In this document: positions 28,234 to 34,051 of the stretch, piece by piece
Layout: the number at the start of each line of letters is the position of its first letter
Numbering within the stretch: the stretch's first letter is position 1
Assembly: GCA_965248755.1 (NCBI GenBank)
Contig: OZ252149.1
Span: forward strand, 1,408,001 to 1,472,000
DNA: 64,000 bases
Reading direction: 5' to 3'
From: Candidatus Latescibacterota bacterium
GTDB lineage: Bacteria > Latescibacterota > CBDEFO01
Translations under genes and position numbers: made by a program
The notes under the pieces: generated by a model
What the model saw: only the letters and a program-made list of their open reading frames with translations
The model's database searches: none
Told to the model about the DNA's origin: nothing

Positions 28234-30738
28234 TTACTTAATAACTATCGATTCCCCCGTCTTACCCAGAATCTCGTTTCTCCACGAAGACGTATGCTTC
28301 AAGCTGGAATCTTTCGGAAGCTGAATTCTATAGAGTTCATCCATAGTGCCAGACGTCAGCGCGCTTTCTATTACTTTACCCCAGTAGCACTTTCTTTCAG
28401 GATCAACCTCGCACATACCGTCCAATGTGGTTCCGCCGCAGGGTCCATTTATCAGGCTCTTGTAGCAGCCCCAGGAGGGTTCCGGGCAGATGTACTCCAA
28501 CTCCGCGATGCGGCAATCGCCGCACATCTCACAGCCCAAAGTCTCGGTCTTTATAGCTCTCTCCATAAACTTGACGAATCTGCCCGCTCCGTGGCTTTCC
28601 GACTCTCTCAAAGACCAATCCAAGAATTCATAGCCTATCGCCCCCGGCTCGAAGAATGCCTTGTGGATCAGTTCCATGCTCTTCTTTCGCCCCTCATACG
28701 AACTGCGGTCTGCAACTTGATAGGGTCCATCCTCCAGTAGATTATCGTCCCCTTCCCGAAACAAATAGAATCCCCATGGAGGGGCAAACTCCATCTCTCT
28801 TTTCCCGTCGCCAGCTCTGTACTCCTCGTAGTTCTCCCTCCAGTCCCCTGCGCCTAATTCTTTTGAAAGCTCTATAATCTCAGAAAGATCGTCAAAGTCG
28901 GTGATCCCACCTATATATATGCCTTCGTAATCGAGACCCCTTACTAATATGTCCATAAGCAGAGCAGACCTGCGAAAGCTCATCTTCCTGTCGTACTCGG
29001 CTAACTCCTCGAAGCCCATTCCCTTGATCCTGTCGCTCTCCTCCTTGGCTACGAACCCCCTCCTGTGTTTATTTCTGAGATCGTCCGAGACATGCGCCCC
29101 CGGAATACCGCCTCTATTCAGATACGACGCCGCGTCGGGGGTCAGGACATATACGTTTCCGAAGACAGGGACATCCGATATCCCCGCATTTTTCATATAG
29201 AGCTTAAGCTCGTGAAACTTCTTTACATCGTAGCCCACCTGGGTTATGAAGAACTTACATCCGACCCTCCACTTTTTCCACATCTTGATATACTGGCCCC
29301 AGACATCCGCTTCAGTGTACTTGAACGGCGATACACCCGTCCCGGCAAAGAGATTGCTCAGGGGCTTTTCAATTCTGGGCAGGAAGCTCGGGAAATCGAG
29401 ACCACGGCCAAGACACCTTATGGCTAACAGGAGACCCACAGCGTCTACATCGAACACGGCCTTCCCCGCCTTCGTATAGTCCCCTGTCACCGGGAATATG
29501 TTCTCGATTCCATGTTCATATAAAGATACGATTCTCCTTATTAAGCTGTCCCTGTCCTCGCTCTTGCAGGACATGATAACCATCGGCTGATGCCCCATCA
29601 GTCTGCCTATATCCGAGGCTATCGTGTCCGGATTGGGCTGTCTGTGGCCGCTTGGTGAATCTGTCAGGCTCACCGTAATGTTGGAACCTTTGGCCCTCTC
29701 TGCAAAGGTATAGAGATTATCCAACTCCCCCTCAGAGGGGACCATCTCAACTCCATAGGAGATTTTGCCCTCGGTATATAGATCTCTTTTCAAGAGGTTA
29801 TCTATGAGCTTCCTCGGTTGGCTTCTCTTCCTTCTGGGAGACGACTTGCAGAAGTCGACCAGAGCCGCAAGGGCATCCTCTTCTCCAGAATCTATCACAG
29901 ACCTTATTAGACTCAAAAGTCTTCCATCTACCAGGTCCTTCCCTGTTATCTTAGTTGCGTCCACAAGAGCCGCGTCCAGACCGTACTCCATAGCGACTCT
30001 GAGATAAGCCTTTTCTACGCTCAATCTTCTCGGCAATCCCTCGGAACAGCTAGAAAGATCAAGGGCGACGTGGAGACCCGACATACCTTTATCTTCAACA
30101 ACCATTTTGATTCCCTCAAGGCCCATTCTTGTAAATCCCAGGTAGTCGGCCCCTATGGGACCTATGACAGGATCCAGGAATATCTGGTCTGGACTGAAGC
30201 CCGATTCGGTCGCCCTTTGGAACAGATAAGTTGCAGTTTTGTGATACGATTCTGCCACTGCTATTTCTGTGCGTCCCGACGAACTGCCGTCTATCTTTTC
30301 CAGAAGTGTCCCCATTACCGAAAAGCTATAGCGATCCCTGAGGGATAGAAGGTCCAGGCTCGATATCGAAACAGGTCCCAAAAGTGGTGGGTTTAACGAA
30401 TTTTGGCTGCAGTAGATTTCCAACGCATCTGTGAGAAGATTTACATCTGAGCTTTCAATGTAGAGCGGAGCGGGCTTTGTGACCTGTTTTGTCATATCCA
30501 CAATCTTGGACACCCCTTGAAGGGCGCGCTTTGTCCCCTCTTTTCTATCCGACCTAAACGAGTCCACGTTTACAAGCAGATAATCTGCTCCGGCTTCTAT
30601 CTGTTCGTTTATCACATGCAAAACATGCTTTCTGCCTTCATAGACATCCAATTTATCGTCGCTGAATAGCTTTTCGACAGAATTTCGAACTGCTCTGAGG
30701 CCGCAGTGAAGAGAATTACCGATTTTTATAAGAGGCAT
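28234..30738 (-). CDS. Fusion of a pterin-binding (AcsE/MetH-like) domain, methylenetetrahydrofolate reductase (MetF) and a Cys-rich MetV-like C-terminus
   Basis: EQIEAGADYL, FLDP, S.GLPRR, YGLDAALVD; then LTD.P.G, VTGD, FFITQVGYD; then CEMCGDC, CPE...C, NGPCGG, CE, CYW. Confidence 0.85.
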   Translation of the reverse strand: MPLIKIGNSLHCGLRAVRNSVEKLFSDDKLDVYEGRKHVLHVINEQIEAGADYLLVNVDSFRSDRKEGTKRALQGVSKIVDMTKQVTKPAPLYIESSDVNLLTDALEIYCSQNSLNPPLLGPVSISSLDLLSLRDRYSFSVMGTLLEKIDGSSSGRTEIAVAESYHKTATYLFQRATESGFSPDQIFLDPVIGPIGADYLGFTRMGLEGIKMVVEDKGMSGLHVALDLSSCSEGLPRRLSVEKAYLRVAMEYGLDAALVDATKITGKDLVDGRLLSLIRSVIDSGEEDALAALVDFCKSSPRRKRSQPRKLIDNLLKRDLYTEGKISYGVEMVPSEGELDNLYTFAERAKGSNITVSLTDSPSGHRQPNPDTIASDIGRLMGHQPMVIMSCKSEDRDSLIRRIVSLYEHGIENIFPVTGDYTKAGKAVFDVDAVGLLLAIRCLGRGLDFPSFLPRIEKPLSNLFAGTGVSPFKYTEADVWGQYIKMWKKWRVGCKFFITQVGYDVKKFHELKLYMKNAGISDVPVFGNVYVLTPDAASYLNRGGIPGAHVSDDLRNKHRRGFVAKEESDRIKGMGFEELAEYDRKMSFRRSALLMDILVRGLDYEGIYIGGITDFDDLSEIIELSKELGAGDWRENYEEYRAGDGKREMEFAPPWGFYLFREGDDNLLEDGPYQVADRSSYEGRKKSMELIHKAFFEPGAIGYEFLDWSLRESESHGAGRFVKFMERAIKTETLGCEMCGDCRIAELEYICPEPSWGCYKSLINGPCGGTTLDGMCEVDPERKCYWGKVIESALTSGTMDELYRIQLPKDSSLKHTSSWRNEILGKTGESIVIK

Positions 30739-30940
30739 CTGGAGTCCCTTTGCTTCTATTTACACGGACCGCTTTTTTGCCTGCTGAGAATTTCTGATCC
30801 GATGTTGGTACAAAAAAATATATGCAACACAACTTTGAAAGTCAATATATAAGTGATACCATTCACGTCATTTTGAACCGAATTACGATCGAATATCCAA
30901 TGTTATAGGCGGAAAAAATATCAAACTATTCAAAAAATAC

Positions 30941-30969
30941 TTGACATATACAGTTAAGTAGCTTATCTT
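30941..30969 (+). promoter_or_regulatory. Putative sigma70 promoter of the cold-shock gene
   Basis: TTGACA-N17-TATCTT. Confidence 0.6.
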
Positions 30970-31088
30970 ACTGTACGCTTTCAGCGGTTGGAGCAAGGTC
31001 TTGTCTGAATCGATTTTAGTGAGGACAGGATTGGCAAGAGTTCATAAGCTCCATCCTTGAAATTCCAAGTAAAAAGGGGGTGATTTAT

Positions 31089-31292
31089 GTGCCTATCGGT
31101 AGGGTGAAGTGGTTCAATGATAGCAAAGGTTACGGCTTCATTGAACAGGATAATGGAGAAGATGTTTTTGTCCATTTCTCAGCTATTGAGCAGGACGGAT
31201 TCAAGACTCTAAGCGAAGGACAAGAAGTCGAGTTTGAGATCGTACAAGGTCCCAAAGGGCTCCAAGCGTCTAATGTAGTCAAACCCGCATAG
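31089..31292 (+). CDS. Cold-shock protein (CspA family)
   Basis: [35 protein letters not shown] start after a GGGGGTG RBS. Confidence 0.96.
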
Positions 31293-31442
31293 GATTTGAA
31301 TTAGCCTTATTGAGAGGATAACACTGTTTCATAAAGTGGTATCGACCAAACCTGAAGAGGTTGCTTGATAAGGTCTCCACCATAAAGCTGCTGTCACAGA
31401 TGGTGAGAGAAAGCTTTGTGGAACGTCTACTCTTATAGAGAA

Positions 31443-31600
31443 CTGAGCACGGCTGCACGACCTTGAAAAATTGTGTAGCGATGCTTACAAAAGTAGCAGA
31501 AAAGCCGGTGAGAGATCGGCAGGTCAGAAGTGGTCGTTACTGCAAAATCATCGTGTAACCGACATTTGATGAAATTCAGACTGAAGGAACGCGGCCTTAG
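31443..31600 (+). ncRNA. Candidate multi-hairpin structured RNA (unnamed)
   Basis: Five consecutive stems found by eye plus a closing helix, followed by an intrinsic terminator; no credible ORF. Strand is inferred from G-U pairs and the terminator. Confidence 0.5.
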
Positions 31601-31621
31601 CATCTGGCATTCATAAATTCT

Positions 31622-31657
31622 TCCCCGTTCAGGATAATTCCGGACGGGGATTTTTTT
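31622..31657 (+). terminator. Intrinsic terminator
   Basis: TCCCCGTTC…GGACGGGGA followed by T7. Confidence 0.8.
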
Positions 31658-31699
31658 GTGCTCAGGATGACCGATCTGGATAGGAGTTTTGCCCTTTAG

Positions 31700-32855
31700 A
31701 GCGGCAAGGTCATCGTGAAGAAGAAAAGGTGCTACAGCTGGTTTCCCAGCGATCGTACCACCTTCCTGATGGTCAGTTGACGGTAGGTTGTCAGGCCTCA
31801 ACCTCTGCCAATCATTTGGGAATAGGTTGAGTAGTCTTTGTGTCAAAGGACTACGGATCAACTTAGAATCACTCAGACGATCCGACACTGACTGACAATT
31901 GCCCGTCAAAGACGTCCGGCCAGAGGATGAGCCGATCCTGCGGGATAGTGCGCGATGCGAGTTTCCTGGCAGTGAGGTTTTCGTGGTATGAGTTTTGGAA
32001 CCTCGATCTGCGCTCCGAAGCTGAGGCGCGCAGATTCAGATCCCGGGAGGATGAGCACTTCCTCAGGGAAACTCTATGGTGTCGGCTCATAAGTTATTAG
32101 TGACGCGATCTTGGGATAAGGGTGCTGCCTGGGAGGGTCGTGAGTGGACAGTGCTGGGATACACGAATGTCCACAGTGTTCCGCTCCATCTACTCCTTAC
32201 GATGCTTGAGGACGGGCGTTCCTCTATCCCATCTACGCTATGTGGAAGGGTGGGACCAGAGAGGGTCTGATCTTCCGGTCGACCGATGGGGGAGAGACGT
32301 GGAGATTGCATGGGGCGTACCCGAGAGCAGGCGGCGAGTGGTAGATTTTGGAGGTGGAGCCGGGATTGCTCTTCAGGACACATCCGCAGTGGCTATCGTT
32401 GGAGACATCCGAGGTCCTCGACAGATTCAATCGGGGATAGGATATTTGCTCTGGAGGTCTGGTCGGAGGACGGCGGGTTAACGTGAACATACCCTGTGGA
32501 GGCGTCCTTTCAGGGCTATCCGAATCATCTATTGAAGTTAAGAGATAGTCGCATCTTATGCACGTTCGGGTATCGCCGCAAGCCTATGGGAGTGCGCGCG
32601 CGCATAAGCGAGGATGTAGGACGCACCTGGGATTTAGATCACGAATATGTGTTGTGTGATGATGGAGGCACCACTTCAGACCCTTGGGGTCCTCCGCACT
32701 CTGAGATTCCCGGGTTCGGTAGTTCCGACGTGGGTTATCCGACCTCAGTAGAGTTAGAGGATAGTTCGATTTTTGCTGTCTATTACATCAAGACTCCTGA
32801 CGCCATAACTCACGTTGCATGCGCGCGTTGGCATCCCGACAGGGACAGGCTGTAG
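31700..32855 (+). pseudogene. Decayed paralog of the downstream BNR/sialidase-like gene
   Basis: Collinear DNA similarity to 32906-34051 with stops and frameshifts; the C-terminal part FQGYPNHLLKL…DVGYP is intact. Confidence 0.85.
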
Positions 32856-32905
32856 AAGTAAGCTGGAAATTCACTCGATGTGATAAAAACAGGGAGTTCT
32901 ACTCA

Positions 32906-34051
32906 ATGGAACACACGATAATTTTGAAGGAAAAGGGGCGCTACAACGCGTTTCCCGTTTTGGACCACCTCCCGGACGGACGGTTGACACTAGGCTTCAT
33001 CTCCTCGCCAGTTGGCGATCATATGGGAATGGGGGATTGGGCAGTCTTTGTATCATCGGACAGCGGTTCTACCTGGCAGCGGTCGGACGATCCGACGCTG
33101 CCTCCCAATTGGCCCGGGACTACCCCGCGTGAGAAGTACGATAGACTCTCCCGTATAATGCCCGACGGCAGCTTTATGGCAGTGGGATCGGTAGGGCATG
33201 AGCTTTGGGATTTCGGTCGGCGCGCCGAAGCTGAGGCTCGTGGATTGAGAATAATAGAGGACGAGATAATCTCCCAGCAACTCCCCGGAAAGCTCGTCGT
33301 GTCGGGGCATCGGCTGGTGGTGATAAGGTCGCAGGATAAGGGCGCCACGTGGGATCGGCGAACGTGGACAGTGCCGGGATACATTAGTCTGATTGGATTC
33401 CCGCGCGGCACGGTCCTTGAGGACGGAACCTGGCTCTTCCCCGTCTACACGAGTCGGAAGGATGGAGGCGGTGACGGTCTGATCTTCCGGACTGCCGACA
33501 GAGGGGAGACGTGGAGGCTCTATTTAGCAGTCCCAAGGGTGTGCAACGAGTGGGCATTGGTAGAGGTAGCACCTGGACGTGTACTGGGACACCTCCGCTG
33601 GGGCTATAGATGGGGACATCCGGAGTATGACAGGATGTACACCCTGGAGGTGTGGTCCGAGGACGGCGGTACAACGTGGACTCAACCGGTGGAAACGAAG
33701 TTCCAAGGTTATCCGAACCATCTGTTGAAGTTGCACGATGGACGCATCTTGTGCACATTCGGCTATCGTCGTAAACCTATGGGAGTGCGTGCGCTCATTA
33801 GCGAAGACAGAGGAAACACCTGGGATTTAGATCACGAGTATGTGTTAAGAGACGACGCCGGTACCACTTCGAGTTCTTGGCCTGCAGTGAAACACGCGCA
33901 GCCCGGGTCCGGAAGTTCTGATGTGGGCTATCCGATCTCGACGGAGCTGGACGATGGCTCTATCCTTACAGCCTATTACATTACGCAACCTGATGCCATA
34001 ACCCACGTGTCTGTCACGCGCTGGCATCCCGAGGGGGACAGGACGTCGTAG
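32906..34051 (+). CDS. BNR/Asp-box beta-propeller (sialidase-like) protein, no signal peptide
   Basis: YNAFP; Asp-boxes SSDSGSTW, SQDKGATW, TADRGETW, SEDGGTTW, SEDRGNTW; DVGYP; GGGAG RBS before ATG 32906. Confidence 0.85.
   Translation: MEHTIILKEKGRYNAFPVLDHLPDGRLTLGFISSPVGDHMGMGDWAVFVSSDSGSTWQRSDDPTLPPNWPGTTPREKYDRLSRIMPDGSFMAVGSVGHELWDFGRRAEAEARGLRIIEDEIISQQLPGKLVVSGHRLVVIRSQDKGATWDRRTWTVPGYISLIGFPRGTVLEDGTWLFPVYTSRKDGGGDGLIFRTADRGETWRLYLAVPRVCNEWALVEVAPGRVLGHLRWGYRWGHPEYDRMYTLEVWSEDGGTTWTQPVETKFQGYPNHLLKLHDGRILCTFGYRRKPMGVRALISEDRGNTWDLDHEYVLRDDAGTTSSSWPAVKHAQPGSGSSDVGYPISTELDDGSILTAYYITQPDAITHVSVTRWHPEGDRTS

Follow-up and report, generated by a model that had tools for sequence, protein, structure and literature searches.

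A folded RNA tail of about 320 nt behind the cold-shock gene of a Latescibacterota genome

Why does a cold-shock gene carry about 320 nt between its stop codon and its terminator, and what might this tail do? The question is raised by csp in the stretch of 64,000 nt analysed here (the window), which comes from the complete, single-contig, 4.54-Mb genome of a Candidatus Latescibacterota bacterium. Among 168 genomes of the phylum, its kin consist of one sister genome in the genus, the rest being related at phylum level only. The first-pass annotation, made from the letters alone, had placed a large structured RNA between the cold-shock gene and its terminator; gene and terminator are both in place (Table 1). 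The region is most likely the 3' domain of one transcript of ~680 nt, consisting of a promoter, a 113-nt leader, csp, the folded tail and the terminator. The tail is a real feature, and it is probably a functional, uncatalogued, non-coding RNA domain of narrow known range. The reading we prefer, at a probability of roughly 0.45, is that of a structured 3' domain that would govern the fate of the csp mRNA in cis.

Table 1. Features of the csp transcript, in window coordinates.
Feature	Position	Strand	Evidence or remark
Promoter, sigma-70-type, TTGACA-17-TATCTT	30941..30969	+	predicted start near 30976
5' leader of csp mRNA, ~113 nt	30976..31088	+	covered by RNA contigs
csp gene, 67-aa cold-shock-domain protein	31089..31292	+	PF00313 (Pfam CSD), E 4e-30
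5' part of tail	31293..31335	+	0 substitutions vs sister genome
Multi-branched core, 208 nt, predicted to be closed by 31336-48/31531-43	31336..31543	+	fold z; 5 substitutions/208 vs sister genome
Long hairpin within core	31380..31421	+	p 0.98-1.0
Hairpin with 10-nt loop	31452..31479	+	p 0.98
51-nt 23S-like segment (E. coli 1254-1304), contains hairpin 31504-20	31481..31531	+	26.0 bits
3' part of tail: second partner 31555-63 for strand 31533-40, plus hairpin 31565-80	31544..31612	+	
Intrinsic terminator	31622..31657	+	stem 31622-31650, p 0.98, then seven T at 31651-57

The promoter agrees with the consensus at 10 of 12 positions and ranks first among nine sites in the promoter scan. The leader folds at a z-score of only -1.2 and carries 2 substitutions in 113 nt relative to the sister genome. 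A single tblastn match makes csp the sole copy found in the genome, and the recorded form of its protein is the 67-aa one. It is the only gene in the transcript 30976-31657, which holds no ribosomal protein operon; a divergent MTHFR-domain gene lies upstream, and BNR-repeat genes lie downstream of the terminator. A simple terminator scan does not list the terminator among its sites, and the sole change there in the sister genome falls in the loop. When one hairpin-plus-U-run rule was applied throughout, the distance from the csp stop to the terminator was 357 nt, and among the other csp matches listed (80 of 596) the first terminator stood 38-98 nt past the stop in 62 of 79, further in 5, and was undetected in 12. 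The element is unusual in length for a csp 3' region; it occurs once in the genome and adjoins the csp 3' end wherever it was seen.

Both neighbours have features of their own. The upstream gene (28234-30738, minus strand) encodes 834 aa, including an MTHFR domain and DUF5981; the 320-aa N-terminal part ahead of them has no Pfam match. It is located near a cobalamin-independent methionine-synthase-like gene and comEC. Downstream, 31927-32855 contains two broken frames, 57 and 119 aa long, that are similar to the intact BNR-repeat gene of 32819-34051 and look like a decaying tandem duplicate; the sister genome has a longer, 215-aa frame at this site.

Parts of the stretch occur in 21 public runs, nine of which are RNA. 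We compared the contigs of four RNA runs, each from a separate study: a sponge run, two marine runs and a run from a hydrothermal vent. All were found using this stretch. In each of them the contigs derive from a relative 95-99% identical to the genome, extending over 30992-31607 in run X16, 31038-31563 in run X17 and 31005-31508 in run X18, while run X8 has two overlapping contigs (30993-31338 and 31311-31563). Cover starts at 30992-31038, nothing lies past 31639, and depth is zero over 30700-30981 and 31640-32100 in all four runs. In three of the four, a single contig bridges the csp-tail junction. Such a contig is not proof of one transcript, the contig data are without strand, ends or level, and RNA libraries may contain DNA. 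These extents, together with the uncovered flanks, fit one transcript from promoter to terminator, and csp and its tail appear to be co-transcribed.

The same coverage bears on whether the tail is an independent non-coding RNA, expressed from the csp promoter or from a weak internal promoter at 31310-37, cut free and acting in trans. Such an RNA might resemble raiA-motif-type RNAs or 3'-derived small RNAs, and Csp may help it to fold. We consider this possible but doubtful. Its size, its multi-domain fold, its RNase P-level conservation and its cover in metatranscriptomes where the flanking genes are uncovered all speak for it, as does the promoter-like site at 31310-37 (9 of 12 consensus positions). 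However, contigs cross the csp-tail junction in three of the four runs, and one more promoter-like site counts for little where nine occur in 1.3 kb against 2.1 expected. Moreover, the tail has never been seen apart from csp and is absent by BLAST from 166 other genomes of the phylum, while large trans-acting classes are usually more widespread.

Folding of the tail exceeds chance. With the terminator, the element has a fold z-score of -4.62 on the plus strand versus -2.49 on the minus strand, and without it -3.4 versus -1.3. The core reached z -6.0 in one run and -5.39 in another, with none of 200 shuffles as stable. Random 208-nt intergenic windows of the genome had z <= -5 in 7 of 556 cases and z <= -3 in 43 of 556, a control with 12 shuffles per window that flatters the rank of the core, whose ends were picked from the fold itself. 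Four of the intergenic windows in this control, near 970564 (+), 3271864 (+), 3568821 (-) and 1082493 (-), gave z-scores of -9.6, -7.5, -6.7 and -6.0, respectively (12 shuffles each).

The predicted local hairpins are robust, namely 31380-421 with its inner stem, 31452-79, 31504-20 and 31565-80: pairing probabilities are 0.94-1.0 for 31380-89/31412-21, 31394-97/31403-06, 31452-60/31471-79 and 31504-09/31515-20, and 0.78-0.95 for 31565-69/31576-80. Unlike these hairpins, the modelled long-range architecture is not robust. The helix 31336-48/31531-43, which would close the core with 12 pairs, has a probability of 0.83-0.99 when the element is folded alone (0.99 for the core by itself), 0.45 with 22 extra 5' bases, and 0.14 in the whole transcript at 37 C. 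Two partners that exclude each other, 31336-48 and 31555-63, compete for its strand 31531-43, and a pairing of 31304-14 with 31364-74 (p 0.50-0.82) offers an alternative to the closing helix. The MFE fold also contains a helix 31444-49/31482-87. The tail is also predicted to pair with the start-codon region (p 0.95), but this was discarded, as 192 of 300 shuffled tails did as well.

Every complementary pair drawn in the first-pass annotation is found in the sequence by enumeration, and its local hairpins are mostly kept in relatives, but its three long-range pairings each lose a pair. The CTGAG/CTTAG helix that it drew as closing the structure is missing from the ensemble and has one pair broken by T31444C; each of its two pseudoknot options loses a pair through G31459A. 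Both substitutions are present in both sister-genome copies and in four of four RNA runs. Its stem GTCGTTAC/GTAACCGAC (31533-63) has p <= 0.02 in the full transcript because the helix 31336-48/31531-43, absent from its list, uses the same strand. Its hairpin 31482-98 fares better: A31489G creates a GNRA loop and G31496A replaces a U-G pair by U-A, which together favour this hairpin over the MFE helix 31444-49/31482-87. What is supported in its overall interpretation is a structured RNA co-transcribed with csp, in line with the RNA contigs, the conservation and the folding z-scores; the closing helix and pseudoknot as drawn are not supported.

Divergence from the sister genome was measured over 344 kb of aligned DNA. 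The element carries 8 substitutions in 319 nt (2.5%), compared with 2.8% in RNase P RNA, 1.4% in part of 23S rRNA, 6.2% in pooled intergenic DNA (median 4.3%; binomial P 0.002 for the element against the pool) and 8.6% at third codon positions. The next intergenic stretch past the terminator differs at 25 of 243 positions (10.3%), versus 8 of 320 in the element (Fisher P 0.0002). Divergence of 2.9% or less is found in 13 of 71 intergenic regions, and the csp locus is slow throughout. The tail is under purifying selection, for which the evidence from conservation is moderate and not exceptional. The sister genome contains two near-identical copies of csp, tail and flanks (C2:11595-12165 and C4:555540-556110), one of them at a contig end, which are probably an assembly overlap or two strains.

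Across the sister genome and the RNA runs, 19 substitutions are visible, with nine further variants outside this count; under the preferred structure model five of the 19 keep a pair, none of them by two-sided change. Under three structure models the substitutions break 4, 3 and 2 pairs against 5.2, 4.6 and 4.6 expected (P 0.35, 0.27 and 0.105). The predicted structure lacks proving covariation, the relatives available for it being only those 95-98% identical. Individual changes are as follows. C31343T and C31347T retain pairing in the helix 31336-48/31531-43 as U-G. In the hairpin 31380-421, pairing survives C31380T, while G31390A and G31402C fall at unpaired positions; one RNA run has a 2-nt deletion at 31405 within a GA repeat. 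G31459A turns a G-U pair of stem 31452-79 into A-U, and G31478, which is A or T in three of four runs, breaks the second pair of this stem unless it is compensated by one of the nine variants outside the count.

These comparisons also bear on whether the tail arose as a recent insertion that is functionless or decaying, folded by luck and transcribed only because it stands before a terminator. Its occurrence in one genus only in all searches, the non-significant variant test and the share of random intergenic windows reaching z <= -3 would agree with such an origin. We nevertheless hold it to be very unlikely, since it diverges at the level of RNase P RNA and four times less than the next intergenic stretch, the tail persists with a single 2-nt deletion in relatives sampled by three marine or vent studies, the element is single-copy, and no repeats or transposase were seen near it.

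Searches for relatives of the element were negative beyond the genus. The first-pass annotation could assign it to no named family, and three Rfam scans agree: Rfam 15 found one tRNA and nothing else in the whole window, its best E within 31250-31700 was 0.12, on the terminator, and its best E within 31440-31612 was 0.51. BLAST of the element found one terminator match and no homologue in 61 relatives, and one 22-nt chance match in the 166 genomes outside the genus when all 168 of the phylum were searched; blastn against phages and plasmids found nothing. As to whether homologues generally follow csp genes, which the first-pass annotation had raised together with covariation, the element was present at none of 28 csp loci of the phylum and at none of 80 of the 596 csp matches from other phyla, 15 odd ones of which were inspected by eye. 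No distant homologue was found in which covariation could appear, and the pairs spared by the 19 substitutions are non-significant (P 0.10-0.35).

A metagenome scan with one pattern, a narrow test in a collection that may lack records very close to the window, gave 96 loci, all chance, and four viral pattern scans gave 27, 8, 1 and 7 loci, none homologous; a hairpin look-alike among the viral loci proved to lie inside a phage ORF on the other strand. Twelve of the metagenome contigs with chance matches share a conserved sequence that looks like a leader and ends in a terminator-like U-run, which we take to recall a T-box-type leader. Covariance model R1, which was built on three near-identical sequences and is weak for diverged RNA, so that its blanks do not equal absence, found no homologue in five single genomes, in seven around a Zixibacteria record or in 151 around a Gemmatimonadota record, and in 151 genomes of the phylum its only match outside the genus was 23S rRNA. 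Homologues are known only in the genus and in the ~95%-identical relatives seen as RNA. We found no description of this RNA in literature listings and the opening lines of abstracts; the main texts of PMC11109978 and PMC8632094 do not mention csp, cold shock or 23S, and their supplementary motif lists may bear on novelty.

Several identities were rejected. The genome has its tmRNA, RNase P RNA and SRP RNA elsewhere, no known ribozyme or intron class matched in Rfam, and a 158-aa ORF on the minus strand is reduced to 56 aa in the sister genome. We also judge it very unlikely that the tail encodes a small protein (25 aa at 31481-31558 or 31 aa at 31463-31558), acts as a self-cleaving ribozyme or is 6S RNA in a diverged form. 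The short frame is open in the sister genome and two of four variants are synonymous, but the other two are non-synonymous, neither start is preceded by a Shine-Dalgarno sequence, and the frame spans one quarter of the conserved sequence. For a ribozyme, no family matched and contigs bridge the 5' side.

The case for 6S RNA is that Rfam finds none in the genome, but 39 of 41 relatives likewise give no Rfam match to it. 6S RNA is a rod with a central bubble, as opposed to the multi-branched fold of the element, which has no RF00013 match, and R1 does not match two 6S-like loci of relatives. Besides, the usual 6S RNA site is downstream of zapA, where the genome has a GC-rich, strongly folded gap of ~500 nt (3563372-3563886) reaching to an rny-like ORF, named from its translation, in which Rfam finds nothing at E <= 2.

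The 23S rRNA match of R1 (17.8 bits) leads to a further reading, in which the csp transcript would end in a compact RNA reproducing part of the 23S core near the exit tunnel (H26/H26a/H47, perhaps with pieces of H35, H49a and H61), as a mimic or captured relic that binds a large-subunit protein or an assembly factor. A free ribosomal protein might then control the csp mRNA, or the RNA might buffer 50S assembly in the cold. We rate this as unlikely, and note that it, the trans-acting RNA and the cis-acting domain are not fully exclusive. Scored against a profile built from 17 bacterial 23S sequences, 31481-31531 gives a gap-free alignment of 26.0 bits to E. coli 1254-1304; the shuffled element scores 17.8 +/- 1.7 bits and reaches that value in none of 60 trials. 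Controls (RNase P, tmRNA, 16S pieces and the cspB tail) score 14.7-20.1, and csp leader plus CDS 22.1; in the 4.5 Mb of the genome the element is the top non-rRNA match, the next scoring 16.5. Identity to E. coli 1254-1284 is 24/31, and the hairpin 31504-20 is in register with the H47 hairpin, of which it keeps five of six pairs, one by two-sided change.

We take the segment to be the counterpart of the H26 3' strand, the H26a 5' strand, H47 and the H48 5' strand, and the MFE helix 31444-49/31482-87 is presumably placed where H26 would be. The best 23S match of the 3' part of the tail is 1662-1675, which lies in a window named beforehand (1 of 100 shuffles as good, first of 57 windows). Shorter look-alikes of 746-758 and 1609-1616 are present in colinear order, and A749, A1272 and A1618 lie in one stack according to PMC9687910.

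The resemblance was found post hoc, and matches of at least 26 bits to any part of 23S arise by chance 36 times in 9.04 Mb, or ~0.0013 per 315-nt window. It goes unreported by the Rfam LSU model at E <= 10. Plain alignment to the genome's own 23S is at chance level (20/100), the exact 11-mer is absent from that 23S, and the 8-mer is at chance (24/200). The 5' part of the element resembles the H26 5' region no better than shuffles do, 81 of 100 being as good, and colinear 23S chains of either flank alone are at chance. The element differs at 6 of the 22 invariant columns of 11 rRNA rows, T31444C weakens the H26-like helix, and a purine-rich strand plus a hairpin with a 7-nt loop are common RNA modules. 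The likeness amounts to a gap-free segment of 51 nt with its H47-like hairpin, while the partner strands are not convincingly present and a complete 23S lies elsewhere in the genome. Colinear mimicry of 23S by the whole element was rejected (chain 72.3 vs shuffles 62.7 +/- 4.8, at chance without the 51-nt piece), as was similarity to 16S (z about 0). Model R3, built from 23S plus the element, gave 16 lower matches in 151 genomes, four of them rRNA and 12 unrelated.

Ribosome assembly is the step stalled by cold. A genuine resemblance would newly connect the cold-shock response with ribosome assembly, with the mimic binding early large-subunit proteins or an assembly factor and coupling cold-shock-protein output to the state of 50S assembly. 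Such an rRNA mimic would sit 3' and belong to no ribosomal protein operon, unlike the rRNA-mimicking leaders of ribosomal protein genes, which are 5'. If the resemblance is not genuine, the tail would be a narrowly distributed new RNA motif of an uncultured marine lineage. As to 23S rRNA itself, that of the genome (1724744-1727891) has 3148 nt, with insertions of 81, 24 and 80 nt before E. coli positions 280, 1165 and 1176. Another genome, G101, has four differently scoring 23S-segment matches on contigs C18, C44, C123 and C163, two of them confirmed as 23S, and is probably a mixed bin.

One of the closest known systems is the tail of E. coli cspB, which folds at z -6.6 and also follows csp genes carried by a phage and two plasmids. 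Both RNAs have ~300 nt between the csp stop and an intrinsic terminator, a strong fold, and a multi-hairpin core with a long closing helix and A-rich linkers. The alignment of six cspB-type members contains two-sided changes in 8 of 25 pairs, and the family is not in Rfam. In the cspB locus R1 matches the closing helix alone, at best 7.2 bits, and not the core, and the six-sequence model R2 of the cspB tail, run with filters off, reaches at best 5.4 bits on the minus strand of the element and nothing on the plus strand. As neither model recognises the other RNA, the two are not shown to be related. They are alike in place, size and general plan, and the cspB tail is an analogue only; its family travels on phages and plasmids, whereas the element is chromosomal and genus-restricted.

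The large orphan ncRNAs ROOL, GOLLD and OLE are comparable to the element in size (200-300 nt or more), in their multi-branched folds, in being seen in RNA data and in having no known function, but they are widespread and rich in covariation. The raiA motif (PMC10861870) shares with the element a length of 200-300 nt or more, a multi-branched fold, presence in RNA data and an unknown function, but it is widespread, has variable gene context and rich covariation, in contrast to a csp-tied element of a single genus without Rfam match. The L17 downstream element (RF01708), too, is structured and sits in the 3' UTR of an RNA-binding protein's gene, though it lies behind ribosomal protein L17 genes of Lactobacillales and Listeria (PMC2864571). 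Its strand was deduced from G-U pairs and GNRA loops, feedback regulation was proposed with function unproven, and its authors saw no rRNA similarity in it; they describe large structured 3' domains as highly unusual regulators in bacteria (PMC2864571). Although rare, structured 3' elements without an assigned function are an established kind, and this one belongs to no family.

Returning to the preferred reading, a cis-acting 3' domain, the compact multi-hairpin fold would slow decay from the 3' end or present a cleavage site on the csp mRNA. The Csp chaperone or temperature might refold the tail; refolding is proposed because strand 31531-43 has exclusive partners and because the pairing 31304-14/31364-74 is an alternative to the closing helix. 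What we infer is the exact fold, binding by Csp, a switch and an influence on mRNA lifetime. The contiguous RNA-covered unit, the long tail, the fold beyond chance with its plus-strand bias, the conservation and the linkage to csp support this reading. The folded tail of ~300 nt behind E. coli cspB may serve as an independent precedent. Another possible precedent comes from S. aureus cspA, where Csp can control its own expression by melting a hairpin of the mRNA, in the 5' UTR and hence 5' and not 3' (PMC5815144). In that gene and in the cspA thermoregulator (RF01766), csp mRNA is likewise controlled by its own RNA structure, but the structures lie in the 5' UTR and coding region, whereas the folded part of the element is 3' and has no RF01766 match.

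Against the cis-acting domain, 300 nt exceeds the needs of a stability hairpin, most csp genes are without such a tail, no covariation is seen, the whole csp locus is slow, and start-codon pairing is at the level of shuffles. Together with the apparently unrelated cspB tail, the element suggests that cold-shock genes have acquired a folded 3' domain of ~300 nt more than once, which turns the role of csp mRNA tails into a general question that can be tested in E. coli. The core of the cspB tail is also found on phage-like plasmids of Escherichia and Klebsiella, where it adjoins an opposite-strand DNA polymerase III alpha gene, and 120 plasmid and 13 phage records match it at least in part.
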